64,000 nt of DNA from Moniliella sp. 'wahieum' (taxonomy: Eukaryota), in the NCBI GenBank assembly GCA_003971905.1, contig RSEE01000042.1, forward strand, positions 434,001 through 498,000, read 5' to 3'. Both the position numbers and the translations under genes were made by a program. Below the pieces are notes generated by a model. It searched no databases. It was given only the letters and a program-made list of their open reading frames with translations, and was not told the DNA's origin. Each line of letters opens with the position of its first letter. The stretch's first letter is position 1. Positions 328-63,599 of the stretch are shown here, piece by piece.

Positions 328-2036
328 TTATTTTTAGCTGCCACGTTTCTCTTCCTTCTTCACGCTATACTTGCCCCACTTGCAGTTACTTTGGCGGCGG
401 GGCCAGTGCTGGAGATGAAAGCATCTGCGTCCCTCCATGCCAGCAACCTCTGTCGATCAACTTCTCATCTGCGTTCACGTACACAACCGCCGCTCCTCCT
501 GGCGCATCATGAGTACTGGAGTGTGGATGTGGGGTAAATCCACCGCCCACAGTCGACGCTTTTATTATCTGGTAGGGGGGGCGGCCTGTACAGGTCATTG
601 AGGCTTGGAACTTGAAGCATGAGTGCAAGGGGCTTGAAGTTGACCGTTGGAGCAGCTGAAGCTTGAGGCTTGAAGCTTGAAGGTCAAAGTCCAAGGTCAG
701 AGAGATGTGAGATGTTAGGCCTTAGGCCTTAGGTCTGATCTGAGGCGCCTGAGGCTTCACCTGAAGTTCAGGCTTTGAAGCTTGAAGCTTGATCAATGTT
801 ATAGTGATCGATGATCCCTCTGCTGGTGCTGATGCACTGATGCACTGATGCCTGCTGCTTCGAGCTTCAAGCTCTTCAAGCTTCAAGCTTCATCGACTTC
901 ATGGATCGTCACGCGTCATGCATCATGCACCATGAACTTGCGTAGTCCGTGTATGATTGTGGGGCCGACGGGAGAGGGCTTGTCGCGCTATTATGCACAA
1001 CTTTAACTCTCTGTTGTACGTATATGGTGCTTGGCATGCTGACATGGCGCGCTGACAGCAAAGCGCTGAAACAGCTGGCATATATATCCCAGACCTTGCA
1101 TTTTGGCCAGAGACCCTATATAGGCCCCAGCCCATCCCAGCCGTGGGGGTGGGCTAACTGTCGTGGAGCTTCAACTTGAAGCTTCAAGCATGAAGCTCAT
1201 GAAGCTTGAAGCAGGACCTAGCGTGGTCACTAGGTCACTATATATATTCGTCTCCTTTTAGGAAATTTAGAGCGCCGCGTCTCCACAGCAAAGTGGGCGC
1301 ACATCTTTGCCCCATCCTTTCCAACTCTCGGGAAAAAAGCGTGCACGGCCGCCTCTCCATAAAATACCTCTGAAGAGGTTATCATTTTGTTGCTGGAGAG
1401 GATTAGGCTGCCAACAGCAACAATGTGCGTAAAATATGGTGGGATGCGGATGGTGCTTGATGCTCTCGTATCCAGCTTGTAACCCCCCACACTATACCCC
1501 GGAGGCCGTGACGCGTAATGGCCCCACAAGCCGTTCCGAAAATTGGCGGTCTATATACGCCACAAAAAGGCTAATGTATATGGCCGCCGGCGCCTCAAAA
1601 GCGTACTCATCACCGGCATCGCCAGCAACCCCGCACGCTGTGGGGTGTGTTTGTCAATGCTGTTTGGTGCCGGTGGTAGCAGGATGCGGGGAGGAGGCTG
1701 AGCGTACTACGATCCAGGCACACACATAGGTGTCTTCATTCTGGTTTGCGTTTTGCGTTCTACTGCCGAAGATGCATGATGCTTGATGCATCTGCATCAT
1801 CTCACATTGATATCATCTCATTGTGATCTCATTGATTGCTCTGAGGCTCACTTATGTGGGTCTGCATGATTGCGATGACGGCCCAGATGTGAAGTAGGGT
1901 GCATAAAAGGACGACGACCAGGTCCTTTTTTTCTGCCGTCTCCCTCCCCCCCACCCACACCACTCTTCCTTTGACGTCTTAACCTCCTTTAACTCCTCAA
2001 CCTCATTCCCCCATCTCCTTTCTCGCTCTTCTCCAA

Positions 2037-2957
2037 ATGACCACCGGTCGTGTTGCCAACAAGATCGCTCTCGTAACGGGCGGGGGCAAGGGCATTGGGG
2101 CGGCCACAGCCCACGTCCTAGCGCGCGAAGGCGCCAAGGTTTTTGTTACCGACATTGACGACGTCGCTGGAGAAAAGTCACTCAAGAAATCAATAACGCT
2201 GGCGGAGAAGCTCACTACGCCAACCTGAACACTGCCTCTGACGCTGAGTGGGCGTCAGTGATGAATACGGTTCGTTACTTTCCTTTTGGTCATCCAGCAC
2301 TGCTGTGGTGATACATTCTTGTGTTGGTGGCGGGATACGAGTGCTGACTGCGTGGATGGGGATGGGCGCAAAGATCGAGACAACGTTCGGGCATCTCGAC
2401 ATTCTGGTCAATAATGCTGGCATCTTGCAGCTTGGTACGATTACCAACACTTCGTTCGACCAATGGCACAAGGTGCAATCAGTCACTCTGATGGTGTCTT
2501 CCTGGGAGTCAAGTATGCTGTTGAGCTGATGCGGAAGCACAATACCCCGGGTTCAATCATCAACTTGTGCTCCATTCTTGGTCAAGTGGGCACGAGGAAC
2601 TGTGTTGCCTATCCAGCCAGCAAAGGACTGGTGAAGCTCTTGACCAAGTCTGTCGCTTTGGACGAAGCACCTTATGGCATTCGGATTCAACGTATGCCCT
2701 GCGTATATCGACACTCCATTGCTGGACATCATGTCGAAGGAGGAACACGATGCCCTGATCTCATTGCATCCTATGGGTCGGTTGGGACGGCCGGAAGAAG
2801 TGGCCAATGCCGTTCTGTTTTGGCGTCGGATGAGTCGTCGTACATCACAGGAAGCGAACTGATGGTCGATGGAGGATACACAGCCGGTAAGAATTTCATC
2901 TTACTCCGTTCCTTGTGGGTATCAAGTGACTGACTCATCTTTGCTCCATCAGCTTGA
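2037..2957 (+). CDS. Classical short-chain dehydrogenase/reductase (3-alpha,20-beta-HSD/FabG-like), frameshifted in assembly
   Basis: TGGGKGIG Rossmann motif, [14 protein letters not shown] catalytic YxxxK, C-terminal [14 protein letters not shown]. Likely introns 2270-2373 and 2887-2952; stop TGA 2955-2957. Confidence 0.9.
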
Positions 2958-3572
2958 CCAACTCCTTACTCATGCCCCACATGTGTATCCCCACATGTGT
3001 ATTTGCCCTCTTTTCTTTCCCAACCCCAGTTCCCCTTAACACATTCACTTTGTTTTCGGGGAGATTTTTGAGTGTCATCCACCTCTTCTCTCAGTGTGAT
3101 GTCAGCCTAGTACATCTACGGTTGCTGTCCGACTCACCTACCAGGGTATCTTCCTCTGTGATGGTCTTCTCATTTCCGGAATAGATCCTTCATGATCTCA
3201 TTTTCCTCCTGCAAAATGCAACGACGTTATATTGCCAGCACTTCCACATGCTGATCACCAAATTCAGGAGGAAATAAGCAACGGTCTTCGTCCACAAGGG
3301 CAAATGAGATGAAGTGTCACCATATTACCCTCCTGACATAGAGTCTAATAGCTATGTTTGGGCCAATATCTCGGTACCGTCATTAGGAAACAATGTCGAG
3401 ATCACGCCGCATCCCCAAGAAGCCTCATTGGTTCCATATCATGGCTAGCGCTTGCCTTGAGATTGTTGAGATATATAGTACACCCCGCCTGAGGTGGCAC
3501 AGGGGACGAGGGGTTAATAATAGCAGTGAGAAGGGGGAGCTTGAAGCTTGAATAGGGAGGCTGTCGAGCCGG

Positions 3573-3801
3573 GTGGCTCGTGCTTTAATTGATGGCCAAT
3601 CTGATGTCCCTTCAGTTCCTCCTCAGGCTTAGGAGTTCCGCGGTTTTCTCTCTCCTGTTTTTCCTTGTCCCGCAGCTTAGCCCCTGATGGCAACTCGCTG
3701 CTTGATGTTCCTCTGTATGCATTGCTGATGCCACTACCACCATCACTATAGTGCGATTGCATCACCCTGGAGGGCCATCAGGACTCCCGCGGTCTCATCA
3801 G
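3573..3801 (+). repeat. Diverged dispersed repeat, copy 1 (copy 2 at 47775-48018)
   Basis: Collinear shared blocks GTGGCTCG, CCTCCTCAGGCTT, TTGATGTTCCTCTGTA, CCATCAGGACTCC, GGTCTCATCAG in both loci, same strand. Confidence 0.75.
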
Positions 3802-5560: not shown

Positions 5561-5958
5561 AATCCCCCTCTCTTCGATGAAGTTTCGTGTGGTTCTCTCA
5601 CCTTTTCCTTTCAACACACCGCACGAAGTGAAAAAGCCCCCCCCCCCCCCCATACTCATGCTTATTTTGCGACACTCATGTCGTTACGACACTCGCCACC
5701 CCTCTGTTGATCTCTTTTTTCTCCTCCTTTATACACATTTTTGTTCTCTTGTTATCGATTCCAGTGATCTCATCAGCACACACTTCTTGTCCTTCACCTG
5801 CCCCTTCCTCTACGCTCCTGGGTTCGTTCTCTTCCTCTCCGGCTTTTCTCCACGACCAACACTACGAGTTCATTCATTAAAGTAGAGTTAAAGTATGTGA
5901 CATGTTGAGAATGGGCAACATAGAAATATGACATTGTCGGTCAATTGGCGGAAACAGA

Positions 5959-14100: not shown

Positions 14101-19620
<5,520 letters not shown>

Positions 19621-22870: not shown

Positions 22871-23683
22871 GGTGCCTTGAGTGCTTTGCGTCGCCGCACG
22901 GGCCCCGTCCCGAGTTCCAACTCGTGTGTGCTCCCCCCTCCAGAGCCGCACTGTGAGCCGCTGCAGCCGTGTTTTGCCAGAGTTTGAGGTTTTATGAGCA
23001 GCGGCAGAAGCGCAGGAAGCGCCCCTCCAATTTGACTTGCCCAATCAAATGCCAGTGTCAGTGAGGCTTTTGTTGAGGAGAGGAGGGATGCCAAACAGCA
23101 ATGCCATATATACCCTCCTCTTGGTTTCGTCTTGGGTCGGCTGGCTGATAGGCTCTCCTGCGCAATCACACCTGCCGCATTGGTGTATCCTTACCAGAAC
23201 TGCGCAAGTACATGCTTGCGGAGATGGGAGCGCAGGCAGGGAGAATTGTGGTGGCAACATCCAGAGGCAGAGAAGTGGCCCACGCTCCCGCCAAGCCAGA
23301 ATGGAGGGTATTTTAACGGCGCCCGCACGCACATCACGTGATGGGAGTTCACATTTCATATGTGCTGAGTCAGCGCCGAGGCGGCCCGGGGGTTGGCATG
23401 CATCATGCATCCTACGTCATGGTGTGTGACGGCCAATAATCGATCATCGGATGCGCATGCGGGCGGGGTCTGGCACAGGGGGGCTGAGATTGCACCCGAC
23501 CGCCCCATCACTCGGCCCCTGCACAGCGGATGGCGTGGGACGCAGCACCCCCACTGCCACTAAGCACTAAGCACCAACCCCCACCAACCAGCGCCATCCG
23601 CTCCCCCCACCACCACCTGCTGCGCCGTCGCCGCCACGACGCCTTCTCCGCTCAGCTGCTGGTCGCTTGCGCTGGCGCTCTGG

Positions 23684-28473: not shown

Positions 28474-30036
<1,563 letters not shown>

Positions 30037-35524: not shown

Positions 35525-37221
35525 GGCAAGGAGAGGCCAGAGCCCACCACAAGAACAGAGGGGAGAAGGAAGAGGGGCGGGTGGGGGCAATTTGGGTCGC
35601 CTGCGGGACAGTCCCTGCATTATATGCTGGGGGGGGGGCATAATAGACCGATCGGACGAGACGAAACGATGGGTGGGGGTGGTGGGTGGTGGGCAGAAGG
35701 CCGGGGGCAGTGTGGTGCTGCCGCTGGAGTGTTTGCATTGCCGCGCCTCTCACAATCAGCCAGTCGTGCGGGGCAAGGGCGCTCCTCGGCTGTGATGCGA
35801 TTGTGTGCTGGGCAGCAACGAGACGAACGGTGGCATATAAAATGCAGTTGTTCGATCTATCGGACAGACGGGAGCACTGCCCCCGCAGCGCGACGCTGGC
35901 TTGGGCAGGGTGTCTGCGCCCCGTGCATGCCATGCGCACCACAGGGGAATGGAAGAGCGCTGCGAGGGGGAAGCGCGAAGCTACTTAGTACTATATGGGC
36001 TGCTGCCCCGTGCATCCTGTGCATGCACAGGGCGCACCCAGCAACAGGCCGCCCACAGCTCGGCTCCGGGTGGGCTGCTTGTGGCTTGTCCACGGGGTTC
36101 CTTCAACTGGGAGGATCATCGGAGAGGGGGCGCAGCATCATTAGGCGAGCGAGGTGTCGGGATGATGACTTCCGCACACAGCAGGAATAACCCAACACGG
36201 TCAATCTTTTATTGCTACTTCGCCGTTATACTGTGCCTGTGAGAACCCCCTCGCCCTTGTCAATATGCGTTCCCGCAAGCAACTAACCCGGGTGGTGTGT
36301 ACATACACACCAGAGGAGAGGAGAGGCTTTGTAGACCTTCATTAGGCTTATAGGTTGGTCACGTTGATCGGCTCACGGTGCCAACCGCGCTATACTGCTG
36401 GTTGTCCATGCTCATCTCATGTCATTTCCGACGGCCGTTACCGCCTTGTTTGGTCCCGTACATAGGCCAAGGCACCTTATCGATTATCACCCTTTGCCCC
36501 TTGTTTGAGCTCCAAAGCCTCCACGGGTACACTCCGGTAGTTTCGAACCCCGGTCTCCTCTTGGTGCGACAAAGGCTTAGACGTTAACGTTTAAAACTAC
36601 CACCACCGCGATCGCATTTTGCTCTATATATCCAGAGGTTCTCCACCCAATCCTTGGGTCCTTTCGGACTTGCATGCGTTAGCCGTGCCGTTTTGCGTTC
36701 GCATATATAGGCACAAAATTTTTGGCTAGGGGTGCTTTCTAGACAGGTTGGTGCCCTGAGGCCTGATGATCGATAAGGTGCTTCACAGGGGAAGGCCGCC
36801 AGAGGTCGCCTCGTTCTTCTATTACAAAAGTCAGGGAGAGTACTTAGCACTTATGCAAAATGATGTTGTTGCATGTGTGTCCCCCGCACGAAAAAGCAAT
36901 AGGGGAACCCTACTGCTGTGCGGAGATTCCGCCGGGAAAGACATCTCTTCCAACAATCCCCGCAACGTTCCACGACGTTCACTTCTAAGATCAGTCGCTA
37001 CGCGCAATCTCTGCCCGGGCCCAACAAAGTCAACGAGACGGGGCAGCGAAAAAGGAAGAAAGACAGAGAGAGTGTTGATTATGTCGCGGAAATAATCCAA
37101 TCGATCTTTCCATATAGTGTGGTACGGCCGGTACCTAATATAACCCTCCTCAGGCCTGAGCTTCAGGCCTCACGCGTCACGGCAGTTGAAGATCAGCCAA
37201 GATCGACAATTGAAACCCTGC

Positions 37222-38318
37222 TGTTGACTGTGATCCTCTGGCTCCCAGTCGGTAGACCAGGTTCGCCTCGGTTCCATCGGCTTCCACGCTGACGTCCCGC
37301 GTGTCACTGTCCCTGTGCCCTGCACTCTCTCCTGTGTGACTCACTGTCCCTGTGCCTAGTCCAGCCTCCTATATAGATGCCTCTGTACCCAGACCCAACT
37401 CTGGCTCCAATCCATCACCTCACCTTCTCCTCATCCTTCTGCCGTCCGGCTCCTAGGCCAACAGAGCTACAATCTGATCCCCCCGGAAGGGGAGCGCTCT
37501 TCAAGCAAGCCCACCCCCAAGCCTACAAGCCCAAGCTAAGCCGCCTGCCAATTCATCCGGGCACCTGGGGAAAGGATGGGGGGGGGGTCACCCAACTTCT
37601 TCCACTCCTCTTTTCAACAACAAAGAGAACCCAAACAGATCAAGACGGTTGACGCATAGCGCCCGTTCATTTCCATGCCCAATGGACCCACTGGCACCAG
37701 GCATGCGGAACCAAACAACTACCAAACGCATCCAATTTTGATGCCAACGACCTTGGACCGCATTTACTCCAAGTTTCCAATTTTCTTTCACTACACCTAT
37801 AACTGGTGCTTTTTACTTTGCCCACCAAATCGCTTCGGGGCGCAACCCCTACTACTTTACTTCTAAGACTTCTACAGCATCTGGCGGTCGCACAATACAC
37901 CAACCACAAGCGCTCGGCTCGTTCAGGTGTCATCCTGGACAGCGGGGGTGTGCAGTCGTGTGGCCATGCACAACTCCAGGCCATTCGTCCCGGTTGCCAC
38001 TCAAGTCCTCCCCTCTACATCCACTGGCAGGAGCTCATCCCACAACCGATGTCTCCGGGTTCCTGGCCAGCGGGGGGTGTTGACTGTGATCCTCTGGCTC
38101 CCAGTCGGTAGACCAGGTTCGCCTCGGTTCCATCGGCTTCCACGCTGACGTCCCTGCGTGTCACTGTCCTGTGCCCTGCACTCTCTCTCCTGTTTGACTC
38201 ACTGTCCCTGTGCCTAGTCCAGCCTCCTATATAGATGCCTCTGTACCCAGACCCAACTCTGGCTCCAATCCATCACCTTCTCCTCATCCTTCTGCCCGTC
38301 CGGCCCCCTAGGCCAACA
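37222..38318 (+). mobile_element. Non-autonomous LTR retroelement (TRIM-like), LTRs 37222-37463 and 38078-38318
   Basis: Two near-identical 241-242-bp direct repeats each bounded by TGTTG...CAACA, TATATA inside the LTR, purine tract AGCGGGGGG abutting the 3' LTR, flanks CCTGC/CGTGC (5-bp TSD, one mismatch), 614-bp interior without recognisable gag/pol. Confidence 0.9.
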
Positions 38319-41300
38319 CGTGCACTCAATACACATTGTGCTCATCGTCATCGACATCCCTAGGACCATCGGGATAAACTTGGTGAACATTGGCCGAGCC
38401 TGTGAGCGCTGAGCCTCACAACACAAAGGCAGCCCAGGGGCATCGTCGACACTGCCTGTTCCGGCTAAATATGGCATGCTCGCCCGGGTATATGGTGCCG
38501 ACGCGTACGTAAGGGCTTCTATCAGTTCTAGTTACTTGGGTAAGCCAACGGACTTTCCGCTGGGGCAGTTTGTGCACTGAAAATTGTGAATGCAATGAAC
38601 CATCATGCATGCAACCACGATCATGCGCCAGGACCGTTTGCGTTGTGCTGTGCTTTGCAAGGTGTCTGAGGATACGAAACAGGTACCCGGTCCACCTCCT
38701 CAGCTCCCCCAGGCTCTCTTAGCTCTCCCCCCCTCCCCCTCTGGCGTCTGAGATGGAGTTCGATCTGAGATCTGACCAGTGACTAGTAACTCGTGCCCTC
38801 TCTATCGGCAAATCTTTCGGTCTCTCTTTTCCAGCGCCACACGGGCCACTGCAAGTGATTAAATTGCGCCCTGGGTTGACGACATTGACGCGTTAATTGA
38901 CGCGTCGACACCAGTTGCTTCTGTATAGTGAGACTGGCTACCTGCCGCGCACACCGAGTAAAGAGGCAACAACAAAAGGGAGTTTCTTTCACTCACCCCT
39001 CCTGCTCCACGAGTTTGGCGCAAGGAACGGTTCATATGTGACGCTGAGTTTGAATGCTGAATCGTGGGCACGGCTTCCAGGTACGATGATAAGAAGAGCA
39101 CATGCCATGGTGCAATCGCATGAGAGTACACAGAACGGGGAAAAGGACATTATGGCTTGCAAGCCGGCCCTGCCGGCCCGCGTGACGCGTGAGGCCTCAG
39201 ATGAGGTCTCCGAGGGCCTGAGGCCTTTTGAGGGTTAGCTGACTCAGGCCTATGCAAATGAGCATGATCCATGATCAACACGACACATACCCCTACGTGT
39301 CGTTTGGTAGATCATCTCAAACATGGTGGATCTGCTTGCATGCGCGGCCCCCACGTGCCAACTTCTATGTGTCGGACTACAGATGACTCTCGAGGCTGGC
39401 CGCGTTCAACGTTCAACGTTTTCAACGTACACTTCAATTGCTGAGCAGTGCATGTGACTCTCGGTAGTACTCGGCCTCACTTGGAAGTTGGCGATGGCAT
39501 TGTCGATAATTACGCGACGATAATCGACAATCGATAACTAAACTTGATAGCTTTTGATAACAATCACTCAGAGACCTATTTCATCCATAGATGCGGTTGG
39601 TCCGAGACATGCCGATGTGCAGTAGACGGCTGGGCGCAGTGGGCTCCCGGTTATCGATTATCGGGTGGCAATATACAAGGAAAACAATACCTGTCCGCCC
39701 CCTTCGATACCCGGTGCGCGGTAACCAACGGTAAAATGCATTCTGATTGAATGATATAGATAGCCCGCTGTGCGCTGAGAAGCTCTGCCAAGAGGGCTGA
39801 GGCTGAGAGGCTGAGATCTGAGAGTCACTTTAATTGACAGTATCCTCATGGCGGATGGCGCTGGCTCTGCATGGGCACTGGCACGGGGAGAGGGAAAGCC
39901 CACGGTTGGGCGTGGACGTGTAGTTGCTTCTCACGTAGCAAGCCGTGGTAAAGCAAGGCAATTCTCCAGGAAAGCCGAAGTGCCTACTACACCTCCTGTC
40001 TACAAGGAACGGGATGGTGCGGGGTACACTGCCCCCATGCTCCGCTCCCGGCGTATTTAAAATTCGTGACAACGTTAAACGCTCAGCGCTCAACAGGGCT
40101 GGGTGCGGTGGCGGCGCACGAGACGGCACGAGCGTGGCAAGGTGTGGGTGGCCCCACGGCAACGGCGGCAACAGGAGGCTTTTGTCCTCCTGAGCTGGAG
40201 GCTGAGCTTGAGCATCGCTGTGTTGCACCATCTGCATCACCTGCATCATCGGCAAAGTCCGGACATGTTCCCCTGTACCGATAATCTCGATAATCGCTAA
40301 TCGCACATCGCTAATCGCTAATCGAGTCTGATCGAAATGATCCGGGTTCCTCTGCAGAGACCCGACACGACTCTCCATCGCGGGTCCACAGCGAAAACCC
40401 AGAACGGACATGATGATCGATGACGCGATGATGCATGAGATCGTGATAACTTTGTTGGTGATTCAGTGATCGATGATCGATGACCTCATCCGTGATTTCG
40501 CAATGACTACGGCCGGCGTGGCGCATGCCGCACGCAGCCCCGGTGCTCCCCTGTCCACCTGGAGGAGTTTATAGCGACCGCGATCAGCTTATCGCGCAGG
40601 ACAAGTCATCGGCTCCTTCCCTCCTCTGTGCCATCCCCTTCTCCTTGGTACAGCAACACCACTACGCGCCCTGGTCGCCCTCGCGCCACTGCTTCCCCTC
40701 CCAAGGTGCGTATCATGTCCTATCATGTCCCGCGGGTGTTACATGTCACGGTTGTGCGCAACGCGTTGCTGGTAACCCCCCCTTCTTGCACTAGATCGAA
40801 TGGGAAGGATCTCATTGCCGATCTCAGCGCGCTCAGCACGCTCAGCAGCGCTTTGGGCTGTGATCGATTCTCACACAAAAAGGTGGGGGGGGCGCCGGAG
40901 CGCCCAGTGCTCAGTTGCGTACTCCAACGGCAATAGTGTGGACTGACCACTCTTTTTGTTTTTGTTTCGACAGACCTCCTTGCCTTGCACACTCAGTCTC
41001 CGCTTTATCTCAACCAACGCACCCTGTGTGACTTCAAGAAAGCTTACCACGCGCCTGCCCAATCCCAATCTCAACCCCAATCCCAATCCGTCTGCTCCAA
41101 TTCCTTTGCCAAGACAAGTATGGATCCCGTTTCTGCAACTGGTGCTACGAGGGCTTGAAGAACGACACGCCGCTCTGCCCCTACTGTACCACGACCCGTT
41201 CCGCAAGTACGATCGCCCGCGCGACTAAAGCGGAGCTCCTTTGCCTTGTCGAACTGATATCATTGGGGCTTGGCAGGTTCGCCTCCAGCCCATTGAACGT

Positions 41301-43106
41301 TATTGAACGTTGAACATGCTATGCCACCACTCGCAGCCTGGGAGCTGGAATTGTGGCGGTGGTGCCTCAGCCTGAGGCCTGGGGTCAGGCCTACGGCCAG
41401 AGTGAACTCAAACCGCCTGAGGTCATCGAGCCGTCCGCCTTGCTCTATCTCCAGTTGATCGATCTCCTCACCATATCTTCAGCTTTCCACAACAGCATCA
41501 AGCATCAAACTTCAAGTCTCCAGCTTCAAGCTTCTGTGCGCGTCACGCGTTCTTCTGTGTATACGCGTTCCGATGAGAGCACGCTCTACGTGCTCCTCGT
41601 CTCCAAGCCATTCTTTCCTTGTGGCGCTTTGCTTTGTGATCAAGCGATCTGGGTGCGTTGAGTGGGCACGATCCAGGACTGCAGGTCGGAGGCAAGCTCT
41701 CTCAGCCTAGAGCCGGGGTTCGGGGGTTTCCGGTGCCTTTTGTCTCGCTCGTGGATTTCCTTCATCTTCCTTTTTTTGCTGTCCACTTAGCAGCTACCCA
41801 TTTGGGCCTTCCGCCCCGGCTTGCGTGCATGGCGCCTCTGTTTTGGTATCAGAGGCTCGCTTGGGGCGCTTGGCAGGGTACACTTAACCACTGCGCTGTG
41901 ATCTGTGACATGTGAGTCCTTTCGGGACCCCCGCAAGGGCAATGGTTAATGGGGGGGAGAGCCGATTAGGCTGGATGGGTTTGGTTGGCTCTATGACTGT
42001 GCATGCCATTTATCTCTGCTGTCGAAATAGGGGGTGTACCATGGGCTGTTGTGATGTGTTACTGTCCCACAGACATGGGCTGGTGGGGCGGAGCGTACGT
42101 AGAGCGAATGGGTGCGCGTCGGCAGTTCCGCGGCACTCTTCAGGCTGGGCTGAGTCGAGGGACGACTGGCAAAAGGATATCGATAAGATCTAAGAGTTCC
42201 TGATTGATATACCATTGATTGACGAGGGTAGGATGACGTTGAACGTTGAACGTAGAACGGCAATACATGACGACGCGCTTACGCGCCACGAGAAAAACAA
42301 GCGGCGTGTGGACGCAGGGCCGATGGCGTGGCAGCGGTGGGCATGGGCCTGGGAACGGGATGGGGATGGGCGTGGGTGGGGATGGTGGATGGGGGCGCAT
42401 GGGAACAAGCCAGGGACGGTTGAACGTTGATTGGGCGAGCGGCGGCTGCCGACGCGAGTGGGGCGGCGAGCGCGCTCGACGGGAGCAGCCGGAGCGCAGC
42501 GTGGAGTTAAGCGAGGCGGGCGGGCGAGTGCGGCGAGTGCGGGCCAGTGCCTGCCAGCGCGTGCCAGCGCTGCGCGGACACGGCGCGGGCCCGAAAGCGC
42601 CCGACACACTGCCCCCCCGCTGGAGGCGGTATCACTGACTCACAGCACGCCGCCTGCCGCGCTGGGCCGCCGGCGCCGCCGAGCGCAGGGCAGCGCCCCC
42701 GCGTCCACGCAGCGCCCTGAGCCCCAGCCGCACGCCGCACGCCGCACGCCTCCCACCGCTGGGGTTGGTTTATCATTGTGTTGCATGCCCGGTGCGGCGG
42801 ATCCAACGCACGCCCAACACTGCCCCCCTGCCCATGCGGCGCTCCTGCCCCGCGCTTGGGCTCATGAGAGCATGCACACAACCACAATCCACCTGGCCAT
42901 GTCGCCCGCACCTATAAGATGCGTGGCCAGCCGCTCCGCCTCGCCCCCCTTGGAGCGTCCCTTCTCTTGCCTACGCCCTGCGCCCCCCTGCTTCGCCTCC
43001 CGCCTGCCCACCGCCCTCCGCCGCGTCGGGATCCATCGCTGTTTCTGTCTCTGTTTTTGCTTCTGCCTCTGCTTCTGTTTCCTTTTGCCTGGCTTTGTCC
43101 GCTGCC

Positions 43107-44651: not shown

Positions 44652-47600
44652 GGTGGCGAAACGGAGTGGAGTGGGTTTGCACGCCACGCCACGCTCCGCT
44701 CTCCAACATGCACAACACCAGCCCGTATCTCTCCTTCGGTTCGGGCCAATGCATTGCATATAAAAGGACCGTCCGTCCATCGTCTCATCATTCTCGCGCC
44801 CTCATTATGGATGGAATACAGGGCTCGAATGCAGGATGCCCGTTCGGTCGGTAGAAGAAACATACATGTCGTCCATTTGACTTCAAATGGACACTTCCCT
44901 GTCACATGTTACAGCGAGGCGGCGGGCTTGCGGTCGACGTTCATTTCCTTGCATCTCAGTAGCGTCGCACCGGTCTCGCCCCCCCCCCTCCCCCTTTCCC
45001 CCACCGCCTCTCCTGGGTCCTTTGCGCCATGTTCTTGATCTCCCATTCCCGTACCCATCCCCTATGGCCCCATGCGCGGGTGCCCCACGTAGACGTACAG
45101 GACGCAGCAGCCTGGATCCAGTGCCAGAGCGCGTAGAGGCAGCGTCGGTGGAGGGTGCAGAGAGACTGGTATTCGCTTGGTGGGCGATTGGTCCCCTAGC
45201 ACACTCGGACTTCCACTTCTAATTATTAGGTGAGACAACATGTTGGCCACTACACCACTGATTGTGGAACATCCTTTTTCCTCCCTTCTTGTGCCTACTA
45301 TAGTACTGACCCGTTGGCTGCAGAACACGTAACAGCACCGACTCTCTATTGCACCAAGCCGGCTTCACCATCTCCACATTTCGCTAGCGATATTGGACTG
45401 CGCCGCTCAGCTCGGCGGAGACACGACCAAAACGAGGAACGGCGCGAATATATATGCCCCGGCATACACATATGGTCACAGAGGGAGAAGATAGAGGTTG
45501 AGAAGGGGGGGGGGGGGGGCAGGGGTATATATAGGTCGGCAGTGCGGTATTACACTCTCCAATGCTGAGATGCATGATGCATGGGAGGCTCTCTTCCACG
45601 ATGCGGGCCTATGTACAGAAAAAAGGGTTGCACAGGGCCAGGCAGGGGGGCGGGGTTCCTGTCTGTCGGGTTGGCGGCACAGCACCTACTAAGAGCACCT
45701 ACTAAGACACCAAAGGCAATTGCCATCGTCGGTTGTATACCACCACCAAGAGATCTGAGACCCAGCAGTTCAATCGCCGTTCTGTACTTTTTGGAGGGAG
45801 ACATGATTATGCATGATTAACAAATGATTAACGGTTTTAATGATTGGAGATCGAGAGGATGTCTTTCATGAACTGACGAGACACATGCTTTCCACAGGTC
45901 CTCCCTGAGACGCTTGATGTGCCTAATGGATCGTACCATCCAAGAGTGTTTTTGCTTGAAGCTTGAGAGGCCCAAAAGATACAGCATGTGGTGGCTTCAG
46001 GCATCAGTGTGGCGCTTGTCTAATTAAGACAAGCTCTATCTCATGGACAGGAGGCCCCCGTGCCGTCATCCACAGAGTGCATTAATTAACTCTTCTACAG
46101 GGGTGTGCAACGGGGGTACCACATCCGTGGGACAGACATTCGCATCTGTCATCTGATATGCTGAGCGGAGAGGTCATCCATCGCCTTTTTGCATGGTCAA
46201 AGGTACTCGGAAAAGTCAGGAGGTCCCAAGTGGCAACTGACAAGTGTATGGCATACTGTGTGAGATCTCGGATGTGGCTGTATCATGCGGTGCACGCCGT
46301 TGTCTTGCTAAACCCAGTGGAGCTTGCGCCGCTGAGTACTGTCATGCGCCCTTTCTTTTATCAGGAACAATCCCATTCCTGTGAGACGCCACAAAGTCTG
46401 TATCACAGGCGCCAGCACTCAGTCCTATATCCCTCAGTCAGTGAACAGGCGGAGCCGTCACGGTGACGCACAGGTGACGGAACCTCAACACACGGCCCCA
46501 TATATCCTTCACTCCCCACCCTGCGACTTTCTTCGTGCCTTGTACTTCCCTCTGTAGTAGCACGACGATCGTCGATTGCCCCCCTCAAATAAGGAAGGGG
46601 GCACTTCCCCTTTCGCCCTTGACCCGCCTCATCCTTGTACGGCCAACGTCAGCAGTCACATGTCCCATGCTCTCTCGCGCCCAGGTTTTGCTGAGGTTGC
46701 TGAGGGATAGGAATTCACGACGAGATTCAAGCTTTGCGGGGAAAAGACAAAAGTGCAAGGCACCTAGTCAAGTGCGCTCGCCAAGTGCACTCGTCGCTCC
46801 AAATCAGCTACTTCTTGCTTCTGCGCGAACGGACCCACCCCTCCGCCCCCACACCCCCCTGCCCCACACTGTCGACGCACGTAGGATTAGTACTAATACA
46901 CTCACACCCCAGATCAAGAAAGATAAAAGGCGCCTTTATGAACGGTTCGAATTGCCAGGTTTGCTTCCTTTGGCCACCCCTCTGTCTCGCCCTTGGTACC
47001 CGGTGTGAGAAACGGAGTGAAAGCAGAGTAGACTAGCCGCACCTTCTTACCTACCGCGTCGTACGTTTCATACTCTCTCTACCCCCATCGCATCCCTTCC
47101 TTCCCCTTCGCACAACTATTTTCAGCGCCAAACGTGTGCATCTTCCCACTGGCGTGCTGACGACAAGCTCTGGGATGGTGCGGGGGGGGCACCATGCTCC
47201 TCCGATCATCTAGCTTCGGTCGGCAAAAATGAAGTGGCTCCAGTGCAACACTTGCAAGGCGCTTGTGGACTACACGAGCCATAAACGATGCCCATATTGC
47301 AAAGCGTTTTTAAGCATGCGCTACGAAGAGGCAGGTGACTAGCCCCTCCATCCTCCCCCTTCGCCGTATCTTCCATTTTCTCTACCTTTCATGCGAACAC
47401 CATCCTCCACCTTCCCCGCTTTCCCACCACGTTGCCCACTGCATTTTCATACTATACCCATCTCCTCTCCCCTGTGGGATGAATCACGGTACCTTCCCCC
47501 CTGACATTCGACTGCTCGACTGTCATGTCTCTCTTCCCTCCTCCCTCGATTCCAGCACGTGGGACGATCCCAATACCGGCTTGCTCTCACCCTTGATCTC

Positions 47601-47774: not shown

Positions 47775-48018
47775 GTGGCTCGCATGTGTTGGCCAAAAGG
47801 TCCTTTCAATCCCTCCTCAGGCTTGCATGAGGCCTAGGAATTCCGATGCTTTCTGGCTTCTGTTTCCGGAGGCTTGGTCCACAGCCTGGCCCTTGGCGAA
47901 GATTGGCTGATGGAGTTGATGTTCCTCTGTAGACGTTGCTGGATGGCTTAGACCACCACCGCTACCAGTGCCATTGTATCCCCTCATCGAGGACCATCAG
48001 GACTCCAGGTCTCATCAG
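47775..48018 (+). repeat. Diverged dispersed repeat, copy 2 (copy 1 at 3573-3801)
   Basis: Same collinear blocks as copy 1. Confidence 0.75.
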
Positions 48019-49895: not shown

Positions 49896-51828
49896 ACGGC
49901 GTGCTGAGTGTACTGGGCACAGGGAGGACGGAGTCCTGAGTACTGAGTCCCGAGTTCCTGATGGGAAAACACAACACGGCGCGTGGCTGCGGTGGCTCCG
50001 CTCAGCCGAGGAAGGGTGTAAAAAGCGGCGGTGGGAGCGCTGCCGAGCGGGCGCTGACTACGAACGATGACTGCGTGACTGGCCAGCGCCCAGCAGGCCC
50101 CCGCGCTCTCGCCTATGCCGACGCAGTTCCCAGGGCCCTCATCATCAGCCGGAAGGCTCAGCCTGTGCCCTGGCGCCTGCCGCGATGAGCAAAAGTCTGC
50201 CCCGCCGCCTGCCGCCCCAACACTCTGTAACTAACGCATCTCGCGTGTACAATGCAATCCTCCTTCTCTTCTCGGCCCTAGGCTCACCCAGCGGGCAGCC
50301 ATCGTTGCTCGTCCAGATCAGGCGGCAGGCTGAGGGCTCGTTGAGCCGTTCAGCCGCAACGCAAAAAGCTTCGCGCAGCCATCGCTCTCGCCTCGCAGAG
50401 CACCTGCTATGGCCGTGCCTCGCACTCTTACAGTCAGTCGCACATTCTCCGACACCCTGTCCTCCCCCAGGTGGGTAGTCTTGCGCATTGGCCTTGCTCC
50501 TACGTAGCTCCCCTGCCGTTTTCCCTGCGAATTGCTTAATAACGCCACCCCGGCTAATACCCGTCCCAGCCAAGAGCCCCACTGAGGCGTGTCTGTGCCC
50601 ACGCCGCCCGCACCCGTGCCGTGCTCCGGCCTGGACCCCGGCGCCACAAGCGCGCGCAGGCCACTCGCACCTCCTGCCTCGCTACGACTGGGATCACATG
50701 CATTGCGCCCTTAGGCCCTTAGGCCTTAGACCTTATAGCCCCGCCCCCCCTCAGCCGGCCGGGCGCAGCGAACAGGAGCATATCGGTGCCCAGACTAATC
50801 GATGATGGATGATCTATCTCTCTCCTCTCTCCCCGCCGTCCAGTCATTAGTCACTAGTCACTAGTCACTAGTCACAGCCAACTAAGTATACTAAACCCGT
50901 TCTGAGTGTACGTTCAGGCTGCGCCCAACCGAGTGTAGCTCCCCAATCAAAAAGCAGTTGATGACAATCTGACACGCTTCGCACTTCTGGGCCACACAAA
51001 ACCCAATAGCCAACAGATACGTCGGCAGATGGCGAAAACCGCCGTACCTGTGCATATGGTCCGCCACAGCGTTGGCCAAAATGAAAGGTAGTAGTGCATC
51101 TCGATGCCCATTTGCTCTTCCTGCCGACGCTCTCTGTACACGGATTGAGAGAGTAGAGAATTGTGTAGCAGCCATCTCTTCCGTGCTGCGATCAGCCTGA
51201 GCGCTGAACCAAGCCTATAAGATCTAGACGACAGAAAAAGGAGAAAGGGAAGAAGGGGTGCCCAAAGGGTTGTTACGTTCAGAAATAACGTTCAGTGGCA
51301 CTATTATAGGTCCGCGCGTACCGCGCGTCCGCGTCATTAAAGATTGCATCACCTGCGTCATCGATCCGCCATCTTCGGCCTGGCTGCCACAGCCTTCTTC
51401 TTCGGCCCCCAGGCCACAGGCCACAGGGCCCATCAGTACTATTCAGTCCGTTGCTCGGCACACATCGTGCCGCTGTCAGCGCTGGACATGACAGTGACAG
51501 CGCTGACACTGCTCGAGCCCCGATCATCGATTCTCCCCACACGTCTGTCCATTGAATATTGAGGCCTGAGGGTTGAGGGCTGAGGCCGAGGCTTGAGGGA
51601 CGCTGCGCACAGACGCGCAGAGGCCTCCGTGGCGCCCACACCTGCTTCAACCTTCCAGGGCAGATGAACGGGCACGTGGGTGGTAAAGTACACCAGGCGT
51701 GCCATGCGACCTGACGGGGCTGCTTACCTAAGCCCGACACGCACGGTGTGGTGGTGTGGCGGGGGAGGACACTGGTAAGTGAGGTACGTACGGCCTGGCT
51801 TTGGTCGTCCGCTCGTCTTGGTCCTCCC

Positions 51829-54830: not shown

Positions 54831-56791
54831 ACTTGCCTCCCAGAGTCAGACCCAGCCTACCGCCGTGCTCGTCGTCGTATTTGATCGTGCGAGGCAGTCC
54901 TCTTGGGACTGGTACCCACGTACCGGTGCCTCGGCACGCTGCACCATACATATGCGTAGAGTGAGACGCGGTGGCAGGCCAAAAAGGGCAAACGAGGTAG
55001 TGAAGCTAGCGCCTGGGTGATTGATTAGTCACAGTGGCTCCCGTGACTAGTATGGCTAGGCAATGACTAGTAACTAGTGGTTCAGTAATTTACTACTAGT
55101 GAACAGCGCCAACCAACTTAGTCCTCAACCTCCATTCAACAGGCTAAACCGTTGTAAATGAGGGCTTAGTAGCCTGGCTGGTGTTGGGGGATTGGTGGGT
55201 AAGATCTAAGAGACAACCAGTTATACGGATGGCCATCAGCATCATGCATCAGCCAGCCACAGCCTGGGCGGATGCTTGCTCAACTCTTGAGGAGTCACTA
55301 GTCATAGTCATGCCCTTCCACGGGGCGAAGGGTTGCCGGTTAATCATTGACTGGCTGCCACTGAGGCCCCCCACTCGTGTGGCTTGTGCTGCCACGACGG
55401 TTGAAAGAAGATGCAGGTCCCAGTTCAAGCTGAGCGCTGAGCCACTGAGGGCTATTAGATACTGATTCGAGCCTCTCCCGCGACTCGCTTTTGCCTCGAG
55501 GAGGTTGCGCATTGGTTGAACGTTGAAGTACGTTTGAACCTCGTGCCACTGGAAGATAGTAAGTGGCGTGGTCGGAGTAATTACACAGCTATACAAAAGA
55601 GCATTCGTGCCAGTCGGACTGGGACAGTGGCCACAACAACGGTTGCTATTGGCTCAGCCTGAGGGCTCAGCCTGTGAGCGCTCGTACGCACGTCACAGTG
55701 GCCCGTGCACCTCCCACAGCTGTCTCGATTAAGTTCTAACGGCTGGGCTGCTGAGTACTGAGTATTACAGAGCTGAGTACTAAGACTGAGTATGAGCGTG
55801 CGGGATATGCGTGAGGAATGTTGGGGTCAAAAACCTTATAGACACGAGTGCAGTTCGCCTCCTCATATCTCGATCGTAGGGGCATGTGTTTCAATCGGGC
55901 ACAACCTACTTTTCATTGTGCCGGGCTGTCCAGCGCTGTCCACTGCCTTTTAATGGCACCGCCCTTGTTGTCGCCCACAACAAAAGAGTCAATTGTCCGC
56001 TGAACTTCAACTTGAACTCCACCCAGGCTTGAATGTTTGAGGCCCCGGAAGAATGAACGTGTTCGGAACTCACGTATCAAAGATAGATATTAGATCTGCT
56101 TTGCTCTGCAACTGCCCTCCTCCCCTGCCCGAAGAGCTTGTAGCACGCCGTCTCAGATCTCAGATCTCAGTAACTCAGTACCCAGTCCTCAGTTGAGACA
56201 TCCAGGACCAGGCACAGGAGCACAGTGGTGGATTGGGTTGCCACATTATGCATCTTCGGCGTCGATGAGCGGCCGAGCCGTTGAACGTCTGAACTCCCAA
56301 TCAAGCGTGTGGATGGTGCTCCCTCTATCGTGCTTTAAGCTTTTCAGGCTTCATTAATCATTGCTCTCTCGGCCATTGAGGTCAGAATGCATTCCGCACG
56401 CTGGATTGTTGTTGCACCACTTACGAGCTACTGCCGGACGATGGAATATTGTAGACTCGCTGCGGAGATGGCACTGATGAGTTGGTTACTGTTTCCCGCG
56501 GCTGTGCTGGTAGTATGTCGTTGGTGCACATGCCGTTTGTCCACAAATACCAGACAACAACGGCGCCACCACGCAAGTGATCCCGAAGGCAACAGCGTTA
56601 GCCAACGCTCTGTCTCCGCAACACTTATAAGCCTACCACCCCACCCCCCCACCATTCGTCATCCTGGCATCCCCTAGCACACACGCACCCCTAGTTCACA
56701 CCGTTTCCCCCAGCATTCTTCTCTCCTTCCTAATTCGCTGCACAGAACCTTTCATCGCCATCATGTCCAACGCTGTCCCTCCAGCGACGAG

Positions 56792-61941: not shown

Positions 61942-63599
61942 TGATGGTTGTAGCAATGCGCTGTGGTGAGGGGGAGGTGGACGGGTGGGAGCGGGTTCAG
62001 AGGGGGAGGCGTGCCGGAGGGAGGATAATGATGGAGGATGTGGAAGAGAAGGGGGCAGGAGGTGCTCGGGGGCCTTGCCTGAGGCCGGAGGGGGGACTGA
62101 CTACGATACTATAAAGGCTAGCCACGGCTGCTGGTGCTGGAGGGGATGTTTGCTGGGCGGCGCAGAGCGGGGGCAGCCACTGGGCGTCGGCAGTGGCGTT
62201 GTCTGGTCTGGGGCGCTCCCTCTGCTTCAATCAAACTGCGCCGCCCGCTGGAAAAATCAGCACATAGCGCACCGCGCCCCACACAGGCCCCGTGCGGGGC
62301 AGTCCCAGGGCAGGATGCATGATGCGTATCGGTGATGCGATCCGCGTGTACACTGCCCCTGCGCCGCAGTGTTGACAGCCACTGCACGGGTGCCTGAGAC
62401 GCTTCCCCACACGTCCCACGCGTCACGCGTCAAGCTCGTCAAGCGCGTCAGGCCTCAGGCTCAAGCGTTTCCAGGTGCGGCTGTTCGGCCAGCGAGCGCA
62501 TTACGCGCGTCACGAGAGGGTGTTCTGTTGTTTCTGTTGTCGCGAGCAGGAGTGTGACAGCGCCCCGCTACCACTCCACTTTCTCAAGCGCCCGGGCGCC
62601 GAGGAGGAGCATCTTTAGCGCTTAGCTGGCGTCGTCGGACCTCCTTCAGTCGGCCCTGTAGCTGTCGTTCCTGTTCCATTCCACCCCCCCCCCTGCTTCA
62701 AACACCACATGCGTTTTCATCATCAACTCAGTCAGGCTCACGCTGAGGCTCAGCTCACATGCTCAGCGGCCTCAGCGTCAGCGCCCAACTGAGCGCTCAG
62801 CACCTCTCCAGCTCACATGCACAAGTCACACATGTCACACACGTGGAGCGATCGCCTCGCCGATCCTCGTATCCATCACCCTACTCACGTACGCCTCCCG
62901 TGGCGCGTAGCAGGCCTGCTATGTAATAGCAGGCCTAGCAGATGCCTGAACCCCACTAGCCCTTTCCAGCCCTCTGCTCCAAAACGTCTCAACATACCGG
63001 TTATACCGGACTTACCTTTCTTCATGTTCACTGCAACCCGAACGCCATCCACTGGCCACCTCTCTTCCCTGCTACATTCTCATCATCAAATTCTCAGCTA
63101 ATTACTTGCCGCTTCTCTTACGCAATCAGTCTCTCACCTCAGTGGCCAACGGTGCAGATCGTGGTCGATCGTCAAACCATCCCCATCACTATCATGCCAC
63201 TGTTGCTGTATTTTATAGTTGCTAGCTGCTGGCATGTGGTCGAAGATCCTGGATGCCTCTGACGCTCCACCGAGTGCAGCGCTCCACAATGCCAACCGCA
63301 TAGACAACCGACATGATCGATGAGATCGATGATCTCCAAAAGATCTCAATTCAAGCTCAAGCTTCAAGCGCTCAAGCTTCAAGGTGAACGTTACTACGTT
63401 GATCATCCCATCAGTAGTCCGACCAGAGACCAGGAACACATGGTGCATCGCCCGCCACATGCAGAGTGCCGGGCCGGCGCATTCTGAATCATCCACGGAC
63501 TTCCGACTCCCGAGACTCTCACAGTCCATACTTAGGCCTAGCGCTCCTGGTATATGATACATCCTGAACAGCATGCATGTAGTACACAGTCTATTATCG

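Follow-up and report, generated by a model that had tools for sequence, protein, structure and literature searches.

A stereotyped 7-bp scar with palindromic junctions in basidiomycete intergenic DNA and its possible origin by transposon excision

Scar loci in the window

The intergenic DNA of the window, by which the whole 64-kb stretch analysed here is meant, contains many copies of one stereotyped 7-base insertion, in which a T-x-A site is doubled around a tiny palindrome (Table 1). The best named protein matches of the window are to Ustilaginomycotina. All 11 strings with which a first-pass annotation had illustrated such duplications are present where it had placed them, and its impression that they avoid coding sequence holds: a coding mask takes up 40.5% of the window, and 1 of 42 perfect loci lies inside it (binomial P = 1e-8), the mask being a crude codon-usage model and not an annotation. 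Scars occur at about 1 per 0.9 kb of non-coding DNA, clustered within large intergenic regions in patches a few hundred bp across, and no scar loci were found between 4 and 36 kb of the window. At least 13 different sequences serve as the palindrome, and the geometry is constant. Beside 40 perfect loci (null 0.4) there are 36 loci with one violation (null 7.1), and this decay looks like a record of mutation.

Table 1. Scar loci in the window; indented entries lie within the range named in brackets.
Position	Strand	Feature	Neighbouring gene
657..935	.	Dense cluster: TGA-type units 657-816, then TCA-type units 857-929	
 715-733		TTA-GGCC-TTA-GGCC-TTA-GG (657..935)	
 775-792		TGA-AGCT x2 (657..935)	
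 829-851		+8 product CTGATG-CA-CTGATG (657..935)	
 865-882		+9 product CTTCAAG-CT-CTTCAAG (657..935)	
 909-929		Mixed chain TCA-CGCG-TCA-TGCA-TCA-TGCA (657..935)	
1167..1240	.	Mixed array AGCT-TCA / TGA-AGCT	
 1177		Candidate 4-nt-junction (k = 4) product (1167..1240)	
 1189		+9 product CATGAAG-CT-CATGAAG (1167..1240)	
 1225		+8 product GGTCACT-A-GGTCACT (1167..1240)	
3538..3552	+	Isolated footprint AGCT-TGA-AGCT-TGA-A	Downstream of short-chain dehydrogenase gene
23397..23574	.	TGCA-TCA-TGCA, site of the first-pass annotation, one-mismatch variant	
 23558-23574		Plain 7-bp duplication ACTAAGC x2.4, TAA-centred (23397..23574)	
36477..37181	.	TTA-TCGA-TTA-TC; CC-TGA-GGCC-TGA; chain AGCT-TCA-GGCC-TCA-CGCG-TCA-CG	
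37166-37181, 39181-39196		16-bp perfect inverted repeat, left and right arms	
38403..39823	.	TGA-GCGC-TGA-GC; GATC-TGA-GATC-TGA; (CGTTCAA) x2.6; TTA-TCGA-TTA-TCG; C-TGA-GATC-TGA-GA	
 39181-39196		CGCG-TGA-CGCG-TGA-GGCC = right arm of the inverted repeat (38403..39823)	
 39263-39276		Plain duplication CATGATC|CATGATC (38403..39823)	
40080..40483	.	CGC-TCA-GCGC-TCA; GA-TGA-TCGA-TGA; TGA-TGCA-TGA; TGA-TCGA-TGA-TCGA-TGA; (TCGCTAA) x5.4 array, unit GC-TAA-TC not palindromic	
41292..42430	.	TGA-ACGT-TGA-AC; TG-TGA-CATG-TGA; TAA-GATC-TAA-GA; GT-TGA-ACGT-TGA	
 41292		+10 product ATTGAAC-GTT-ATTGAAC (41292..42430)	
 41494-41549		Decayed array holding three sites of the first-pass annotation (41292..42430)	
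 42236-42253		ACGT-TGA-ACGT-TGA-ACGT (41292..42430)	
45569..45966	.	GA-TGCA-TGA-TGCA-TG; GCT-TGA-AGCT-TGA	Downstream of mitochondrial carrier gene
50707..50875	.	+8 product CCTTAGG-C-CCTTAGG, then CC-TTA-GGCC-TTA-G; longest array (CTAGTCA) x4, 28-bp exact run	
51551..51598	+	AT-TGA-ATAT-TGA-GGCC-TGA-GG, two-palindrome chain, then decayed TGAGG units	
55064..56362	.	Eight loci: TGA-CTAG-TAA-CTAG; TAA-GATC-TAA-GA; GCA-TCA-TGCA-TCA; AG-TCA-CTAG-TCA; GC-TGA-GCGC-TGA-GC; GT-TGA-ACGT-TGA-A; C-TGA-GTAC-TGA-GTA, decayed units up to 55796; (TCTCAGA) x2.9; TCA-TTAA-TCA-TT	Downstream of Mre11
62417..62626	.	CA-CGCG-TCA-CGCG-TCA; TCA-GGCC-TCA-GGC; TTA-GCGC-TTA-GC	Upstream of GMC oxidoreductase gene (minus strand)
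 62428		+9 product CGTCAAG-CT-CGTCAAG (62417..62626)	
63313..63383	.	A-TGA-TCGA-TGA-GATC...; TCA-AGCT-TCA-AGC; TCA-AGCT-TCA-AG	

Period-7 signal

Period-7 repeats of a 4-base palindrome plus TCA, TGA, TAA or TTA are 30-100x over Markov nulls. Self-matches of 4-mers at distance 7 number 818 in the window, versus about 440 at each of distances 4, 8, 10 and 11, and no excess was found in the window at periods 4, 5, 8, 10 or 11. Exact period-7 runs that span 13 bp or more number 80, versus about 15 in the Markov null (100 simulations each of orders 1, 3 and 5). The unit is quasi-palindromic in 34 of the 80 (null 1.7), and in 33 of those 34 units T-N-A lies at the centre; a T-S-A centre is found in 29 of the 80 runs (null 0.15-0.5) and a T-W-A centre in 4 (null 0-0.06).

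The claim that the spacer between the repeated 4-mers is constrained to these triplets stands for palindromic 4-mers: among 58 sites in which the same 4-base palindrome (pal4) flanks three bases, the spacer is TCA in 11, TGA in 9 and TTA in 1, and TCA and TGA together make up 2.9% of trinucleotides in the window overall. Extended to all 818 N4-N3-N4 sites the claim does not hold, as TCA, TGA, TAA and TTA are enriched there by 1.2-1.5x only. In non-coding DNA, TGA ranks first, TTA second, TCA third and TAA seventh of the 64 triplets preceding a 4-bp palindrome; TGA, TCA, TTA and TAA are the top four of those following one.

Anatomy of the scar

The basic product is 12 bp long and reads TNA-xy-y'x'-TNA-xy. 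By length, the 54 runs with TNA-pal4-TNA cores comprise 2 of 10 bp, 6 of 11 bp, 17 of 12 bp, 13 of 13 bp, 5 of 14 bp and 11 longer ones. Among the 17 12-bp runs, 10 have the phase TNA-pal4-TNA-xy and 7 its mirror image ((0,2)/(2,0)), and none (0/17) is centred (1,1). An unbiased search of both strands for [abcxy][rc(xy)][abcxy] returned 89 sites (10.6 in a Markov-3 null), in 62 of which abc is TCA (27), TGA (26), TTA (5) or TAA (4). Products with a gain of 7 bp number 62 (null 0.33); those of +8 bp, [..TNAxy][P][qTNAxy], number 5 (null 0.1), and those of +9 bp, [..][P][pqTNAxy], number 4 (0 in 40 simulations). The net gain per scar is thus nearly always +7 bp, at about 87% of recognisable products, the searches recognising structured products only. 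Because the +8 and +9 products extend to pqTNAxy, the direct repeat reaches 7 nt.

When k denotes the number of junction nucleotides, 34 junctions are assigned to k = 2/3 only (null 0.17), 6 to k = 0 only (null 0.13), 4 to k = 4 only (null 0.1) and 1 to k = 1 only, and 32 are ambiguous. Five plain, non-palindromic 7-bp duplications have TNA exactly at their centre (null 0.05), for instance at 39263. TNA-centred 7-mer repeats separated by a 1-3-nt filler that is complementary to the adjacent repeat end occur at 836, 865, 1189, 1225, 40280, 41292, 45802, 50709, 57871 and 62428. A target logo of 43 events is constrained at T, S (37/43) and A only, and 2-bp palindromes between TSA triplets show no excess (6, null 5.5). 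TSA triplets on the two sides of a pal4 have the same orientation in 52 cases (null 1.6) and opposite orientations in 4 (null 1.2), and 56 chains end in TSA on both sides (27), in the palindrome on both sides (16) or are mixed (13). Some chains join units with unrelated palindromes, such as TCA-AGCT-TCA-TCGA, and all four positions can differ. These data fit a 7-bp duplication of an nn-T-S-A-nn target, with 0-3 junction nucleotides complementary to the duplicated end that resemble the P nucleotides left by hairpin opening.

The first-pass annotation had proposed, in the manner of Tc1/mariner, a transposon with a 4-bp palindrome-biased duplication and TGA..TCA or TAA..TTA ends, leaving a stackable +7-bp scar that regenerates its own target. 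The general idea persists in the reading preferred below; the detailed anatomy failed four tests and is highly implausible. It does account for the +7 bp and the T-N-A triplet, and the palindrome is repeated around TSA in 20 of the 58 pal4-N3-pal4 sites. However, triplets set independently by transposon ends do not agree with identical flanking triplets in 52/56 cases, a scar that begins and ends with the palindrome describes the minority of chains, and the predicted 11-bp primary product is represented by 6 runs against 30 of 12-13 bp. Adjacent units with unrelated palindromes cannot come from a 4-bp duplication, direct repeats reach pq-TNA-xy in the +8/+9 products and plain duplications, and arbitrary 4-mers that are all strictly palindromic would be an implausible target preference. 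Nor does the likeness to a Tc1/mariner footprint go past general logic, there being no TA duplication and a repeat of TNAxy up to pqTNAxy. The TNA is therefore part of the duplicated target and not a transposon end, and the palindromic 4-mer arises at the junction and is no target duplication.

Occurrence in a second lineage

The same signature is present in two distant basidiomycete lineages, that of the window and that of L062, a Lactarius-like metagenome contig (85% identity) with arrays of CTGAGAT, GGTAACC and TGAAGCT. Paralogous spacers of L062 differ by +7 and +14 bp, that is, by whole 7-bp units, and a variant unit, TTGATGC, has itself been amplified. Among L062 paralogs that are 12-22% diverged, perfect arrays are kept at the same position.

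Comparison with known transposon systems

Of the window's 244 ORFs with 110 aa or more, 168 were scanned, and none of these has a transposase Pfam domain; the window and fetched loci, together 0.80 Mb (loci 0.73 Mb), yielded no convincing candidate for an element with terminal inverted repeats and a 3-, 4-, 7- or 8-bp duplication. Known systems offer several points of comparison. Excision of hAT elements proceeds via hairpins on the flanking DNA, Artemis-type opening cuts such hairpins about 2 nt from the tip, and in the footprints of Ac/Ds and Tam3 both duplications persist, joined through complementary bases. Like hAT footprints (Ac/Ds, Tam3, Hermes), the scars keep both copies of the target duplication, here TNA-centred 7-mers with 0-3 nt between them, and the nucleotides at the junction are the complement of the duplicated end, just as an opened hairpin would leave them. 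In the most frequent product they stand in place of equally many bases from the other copy, and the gain is then the length of the duplication, which is again hAT-like. On the other hand, hAT elements classically target 8 bp with the pattern nTnnnnAn, whereas here the repeat is at most 7 nt with the logo nnTSAnn; the scars also differ in that 2-3 junction nucleotides prevail, and their density is unusual.

Two groups of basidiomycete transposons with 7-bp duplications were described in 2025: the hAT7 families of Pucciniales, which cluster with Ac and Tam3, and the Kyakuja elements, found in Agaricomycotina including Russulales (PMC12730594). They are documented in Pucciniomycotina and Agaricomycotina; Ustilaginomycotina are not mentioned in the text of that paper (PMC12730594). 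The scars resemble hAT7 of rust fungi in duplication length, but the lineage of the window is a different one, and neither a hAT transposase nor a hAT element turned up in the window or loci. Kyakuja (KDZ) elements likewise agree in the length of the duplication, which is the basis of the comparison, and they occur in the order of L062, Russulales; however, they are described as having CA..TG ends without inverted repeats (PMC12730594), and CA/TG remnants were not seen in the scars. In the smut Ustilago maydis, whose genome is transposon-poor, thousands of short intergenic repeats have been read as scars of past transposons (2012 study, as cited in PMC4081816). Their unit is 10 bp and not 7; our guess is that it represents an 8-bp duplication plus 2 nucleotides.

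Tc1/mariner footprints (TA + 2-3 terminal nt + TA) share with the scars a stereotyped short insertion with the target duplicated on either side. They differ in that the flank, and not the element, supplies the inserted bases here, 7 bp are duplicated instead of TA, and the central base is invariant between both copies. PIF/Harbinger and IS5-type elements, with TNA/TWA 3-bp duplications, share the T-N-A at the target centre, but the duplicated stretch here is 5-7 nt instead of 3, and S is favoured over W. A PIF/Harbinger footprint (3-bp duplication plus 2+2 end bases) would be 10 bp, a length seen in 2 of 54 runs only, and a 3-bp TNA duplication is rejected, as the repeat runs 2 nt past TNA at one flank and, in the +8/+9 products, as many as 2 nt past it at the opposite flank.

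Origin of the scars

The scars are a real feature, a variant of known transposon footprints that is new in this form. On balance, we favour the view that they were left by the excision of a cut-and-paste DNA transposon whose insertion duplicates a 7-bp nn-T-S-A-nn target. Judged by duplication length, hAT7-like elements (hAT superfamily) or Kyakuja-like ones are the best candidate sources. Because the window and fetched loci yielded neither a donor element nor a transposase, the transposon, like the hairpin chemistry, is something that we infer. Upon excision, each flank would keep its copy of the 7-bp duplication, with the end sealed as a hairpin that would be nicked k nt from its tip, mostly with k = 2-3. 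Ligation of one strand over the break would then give [pqTNAxy], followed by k palindromic nucleotides (y'x'..) and the second copy without the k bases at its start, a net gain of +7 bp independent of k. With k = 2-3 the junction xy.y'x' would be an arbitrary perfect 4-bp palindrome between identical TNA triplets, and with k = 0 a plain tandem 7-bp duplication would result. Since each scar has two TNA targets, re-insertion and excision could extend it into a period-7 array, probably together with replication slippage, and the use of the left or right flank hairpin could produce chains with two different palindromes. Against the footprint reading, the products are more uniform than typical end-joining footprints, and the persistence of arrays in the diverged L062 paralogs would also be accounted for by slippage alone. 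Clustering is also far above random re-hitting of the 1,569 non-coding TNA sites, and the reading therefore needs slippage as well, or else a strong preference for sites already scarred.

An endogenous process would produce the same anatomy. The open chromatin between genes could be cut at T-S-A, with a 7-bp stagger and hairpin-sealed ends, by a repair pathway or by a host nuclease such as a domesticated transposase of hAT/RAG type, and end joining would turn these breaks into +7 scars. This would accord with the missing donor, the patches in large intergenic regions with the gap from 4 to 36 kb, and the signature's presence in two distant lineages. We nevertheless think it improbable. Duplicating 7 bp is characteristic of transposon integration, and a simple break would do so only if both overhangs were filled in, which clashes with hairpin sealing; we know of no fungal nuclease of this kind except the transposase-derived mating-type switching enzymes of Kluyveromyces. 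The missing element is weak evidence, because only 64 kb of this genome were covered.

Ordinary heptanucleotide microsatellites, in which chance 7-bp duplications of hairpin-prone quasi-palindromic units grow and shrink by replication slippage with no transposon or specific break, are an equally doubtful source. The whole-unit differences between L062 spacers, the amplified TTGATGC variant and arrays of up to 4-5 units are as slippage would have them, and tandem units are predicted to fold into 5-bp stems with 3-nt loops. Slippage, however, would be free in phase, length and unit, whereas here 12-13 bp is the commonest length, two asymmetric phases are preferred and there is no fall-off from 10 bp, and the near-invariant T-N-A centre (not A-N-T, C-N-G or G-N-C) is left unexplained. 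So are the duplication of TNA-centred non-palindromic 7-mers, the complementary fillers of the +8, +9 and +10 products, adjacent palindromes differing at all four positions and the lack of excess at other periods.

Selection on functional cis-elements, either binding-site arrays (ACGCGT MCB-like, bZIP TGA half-sites) or UTR RNA hairpins, is very unlikely: the scars are intergenic and adjoin genes, TGACGCGT-like words recur and array position is kept among L062 paralogs, but no single factor could read so many palindromes in one geometry, orientation relative to neighbouring genes is inconsistent, one-mismatch variants are almost as frequent as perfect loci, and an asymmetric 12-mer with an arbitrary xy copied as y'x' is a signature of copying, not a motif.

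Implications

A broader reading may be put forward tentatively, as a possibility that we hold to be less likely than the excision footprints themselves. The nn-T-S-A-nn duplication with its 2-3-nt hairpin-derived palindrome might be a pervasive, highly stereotyped and previously undescribed +7-bp mutational signature of basidiomycete intergenic DNA across subphyla, recording thousands of excisions of a 7-bp-duplicating transposon that is now absent or rare, or the action of a domesticated hairpin-forming transposase on open chromatin. If so, heptamer microsatellites and new promoter 6-bp palindromes of the form A-NNNN-T (ACGCGT, AAGCTT, ATCGAT) would stem mainly from this signature.

Gene Content and Source of the Window

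The window is eukaryotic, with split reading frames and a G+C content of 58%. Pfam matches in its reading frames include RNA polymerase II Rpb1 with its C-terminal repeats, homoaconitase, ketol-acid reductoisomerase, Mre11, hexokinase, an RFC subunit, an ING/PHD protein, a Vps27-like VHS/FYVE protein, a mitochondrial carrier, and a GMC oxidoreductase. Among named relatives, the homoaconitase is closest to those of Ceraceosorus and Malassezia (69% identity), with unnamed sequences reaching 83%. The source is therefore a basidiomycete and, judging from such sequence comparison, probably Ustilaginomycotina-like.

Features of the window and their coordinates
Feature	Position in window	Description
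Gene-dense region	4000-36000	Methyltransferase, hexokinase, ING/PHD, RFC, Rpb1, Vps27-like, KARI, homoaconitase, fasciclin
Patches of perfect loci	0.6-3.6, 36.4-46, 49.9-51.6, 55-57.9, 62.4-63.4 kb	
+9 product	1189	CATGAAG-CT-CATGAAG
+9 product	62428	CGTCAAG-CT-CGTCAAG
Plain duplication	39263	CATGATC-CATGATC
Period-8 array	829-851	CTGATGCA
Period-8 array	1225-1240	GGTCACTA
Period-8 array	50707-50729	GCCCTTAG
Inverted-repeat candidate	37163-39199	16-bp perfect arms, GGCCTCACGCGTCACG, at 37166-37181 and 39181-39196
Direct repeats	37222-37463, 38078-38318	About 245 bp, 95% identical, 856 bp apart; TGTTG start, CAACA end; flanking pentamers CCTGC and CGTGC
Weak dispersed repeat	3606-3801, 47800-48018	Two non-coding regions; 68% identity over about 220 bp
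Homopolymer runs	5637-5651, 45505-45519	C15 and G15, non-coding
21-bp tandem repeats	14205-14762, minus strand	Coding for the heptad repeats of the Rpb1 C-terminal domain
53-bp tandem duplication	28068-28178	2.1 copies, 94% identical; upstream of the ketol-acid reductoisomerase gene

Distribution of the Period-7 Signal

Within the window, 4-mers match themselves 818 times at a distance of 7, vs. about 440 times at distances of 4, 8, 10, and 11, and outside long reading frames the period-7 rate is about threefold above baseline. The window contains 80 exact period-7 runs that are 13 bp or longer, where Markov nulls give about 15. A quasi-palindromic unit is present in 34 of these 80 (null 1.7), and its center is TSA (TCA or TGA) in 29, T-W-A in 4, and another sequence in 1. 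All 11 repeat strings cited in the first-pass annotation are present at their places. That annotation also held that the spacer between duplicated 4-mers is constrained to TNA (TCA, TGA, TTA, or TAA), which holds for palindromic 4-mers (TCA and TGA make up 20 of 58 sites) but not for 4-mers at large. Over all N4-N3-N4 sites the four spacers are enriched only 1.2- to 1.5-fold, with no clear TNA excess, a misleading count in which the signal is diluted by array phases and coding periodicity.

The proposed avoidance of coding sequence is borne out, as only 1 of 42 perfect loci (period-7 repeats of palindrome plus TNA without mismatch) falls inside a crude codon-usage mask that covers 40.5% of the window. 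Scars occur only in the larger intergenic regions, and the gene-dense region contains no perfect footprint despite several intergenic spacers there. Perfect loci number 40 (null 0.4) and loci with one violation 36 (null 7.1), while the excess of two-violation loci over the null is not measurable in the window. The scars thus resemble a mutational record that is fairly young and in decay.

Anatomy of the Scars

The primary product is TNAxy-y'x'-TNAxy, where y'x' is the reverse complement of xy. An unbiased search of both strands for any abcxy, followed by the reverse complement of xy and a second abcxy, returned 89 sites (null 10.6), 62 of which begin with TCA, TGA, TTA, or TAA. Rarer products are of the forms TNAxy-P-qTNAxy (+8, n = 5) and TNAxy-P-pqTNAxy (+9, n = 4). 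Non-palindromic 7-mers with TNA exactly at their center also occur as plain tandem duplications (5, null 0.05), and TNA-centered 7-mer repeats are found with 1–3 intervening nucleotides complementary to the adjacent repeat end. From the +8, +9, plain, and filler products it follows that the duplicated stretch includes the two bases that precede TNA. A single formula then covers all products: pqTNAxy, followed by k nucleotides complementary to its end and then by the other copy without its first k bases. By junction class, 34 events fit only k = 2 or 3 (null 0.17), two values that are indistinguishable because T pairs with A; 6 fit only k = 0, 4 only k = 4, and 1 only k = 1, and 32 are ambiguous. 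In 43 events outside array interiors, the target is constrained at T, S (37 of 43), and A only. Three period-8 arrays share the TNA-centered grammar and are read as +8 variants of the same event.

The first-pass annotation had proposed a 4-bp palindromic target duplication plus three transposon-end bases, and four results show that anatomy to be wrong. Firstly, an independent triplet at each event would make the triplets flanking a palindrome identical about half of the time, while the counts are 52 identical pairs (null 1.6) and 4 opposite ones (null 1.2). Secondly, only 16 of 56 chains begin and end in a palindrome; 27 have TSA at both ends and 13 are mixed. Thirdly, the predicted 11-bp product accounts for only 6 of the 54 runs around TNA-palindrome-TNA cores, which measure 10 bp in 2, 12 bp in 17, 13 bp in 13, 14 bp in 5, and more in 11; of the 12-bp runs, 10 read TNA-palindrome-TNA-xy and 7 read y'x'-TNA-palindrome-TNA, none being centered. 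Lastly, neighboring units sometimes carry unrelated palindromes.

Other anatomies were also set aside. A 3-bp TNA duplication joined to 2 + 2 terminal nucleotides of inverted repeats expects 10 bp and would require ten or more element families, each with its own ends. A plain 7-bp duplication as the basic product expects 14 bp, which does not fit the run lengths either. A 5-bp duplication with 2 P nucleotides (Transib-like) gave way to the 7-bp model once the +8 and +9 products and the plain duplications were taken into account.

Search for a Donor Element

Among the window's 244 ORFs of 110 or more amino acids, 168 were scanned and none showed a transposase domain, and self-comparison of the window did not reveal a dispersed DNA-transposon family. 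Searches of the window for inverted-repeat elements returned one candidate of note, whose arms are built of a footprint motif chain. It has TCA on both flanks and encloses 2 kb, including an LTR-like pair; this inverted repeat may be due to chance or may represent the ends of a non-autonomous element. The enclosed direct repeats have the look of a TRIM-like, small non-autonomous LTR element, or else of a solo pair.

A Second Lineage

Scanning metagenomes for three AGCTTCA units gave at least 121 stretches, and 120 loci were searched, L048 being set aside as part of the same contig as L047. Among the matches listed, another TNA 12-mer is present in 14 of the 120 loci, and two or more in three of them (L062, six; L034, three; L100, two). 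Most of the listed stretches are on unrelated contigs with nothing else of the signature, and inverted-repeat scans of the metagenome loci showed no enrichment of TNA-flanked elements. L062 resembles Lactarius, with 85% identity to a helicase of Lactarius psammicola, and its positions 1-20021 hold four tandem 5.5-kb paralogous units that are 78–88% identical, each coding for an intron-bearing AAA_11/AAA_12 (Upf1/SDE3-like) RNA helicase. In the paralogous spacers, arrays lie at the same place and differ by one unit (CTGAGAT, +7), by two (+14), or by many. The signature is therefore present in a second, distant basidiomycete lineage, and its arrays change by whole units.

Origin of the Scars

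The scar feature itself is real, and the general idea of transposon scars put forward in the first-pass annotation is plausible, if not the anatomy that came with it. hAT elements excise via hairpins on the flanking DNA, and the footprints of Ac/Ds and Tam3 retain the two duplications and carry complementary bases where these meet. Artemis-type opening takes place about 2 nt from the hairpin tip. Hairpin opening would leave a loop-free perfect palindrome, whatever its sequence, exactly where a target duplication ends, and a target duplication retained at both sides would be the remnant of transposon excision. The best reading, held with moderate confidence, is that the scars are excision footprints of hAT7-like or Kyakuja-like transposons. 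The net gain would be +7 whatever the value of k, so that the excess is exclusive to period 7, and TNA orientation would be constant within a chain because every copy descends from one target. In chains with two palindromes, the left one would be q'p'pq and the right one xyy'x'.

An endogenous hairpin-forming nuclease might also yield palindromes at a duplication end, and is an unlikely maker of the scars. Random re-use of the non-coding TNA sites, 1,569 in all, could not cluster the scars nearly so strongly, which means that slippage, or a bias toward sites already scarred, must play a part; slippage alone is an improbable explanation. That they are cis-regulatory arrays is very doubtful, and the 4-bp duplication with three end bases, given the flanking triplets and run lengths, is hardly tenable.

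According to a 2025 study, the hAT7 families of rust fungi make 7-bp duplications and cluster with Ac and Tam3, and Kyakuja elements make 7-bp duplications across Agaricomycotina, including Russulales (PMC12730594). What both share with the scars is the length of the duplication. In Ustilago maydis, numerous 10-bp repeats have been suggested to be transposon footprints, according to PMC4081816 (citing Laurie et al., 2012); PMC8120014 has nothing further on these repeats. Literature searches on heptanucleotide microsatellites in smuts and transposon footprints in U. maydis gave no matches, and those on excision footprints and palindromes in fungal genomes gave nothing relevant. No description of the 7-bp T-N-A-centered signature was found in a literature coverage that excludes most subscription journals, so it may be published.

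Implications

If the excision reading is right, there is about one transposon scar per kb of non-coding DNA in a stretch where no DNA transposon was found. The grammar TNAxy-y'x'-TNAxy would be usable to quantify and date past cut-and-paste activity, and the target logo of the scars could point to the transposon family responsible. The reading also suggests that the unexplained 10-bp repeats of U. maydis obey the same rule with an 8-bp duplication. Were it correct, the scars would be an in vivo read-out of the position of hairpin opening in fungal end joining, and transposons would give rise in promoters to period-7 microsatellites and to new palindromic words that could serve as binding sites.
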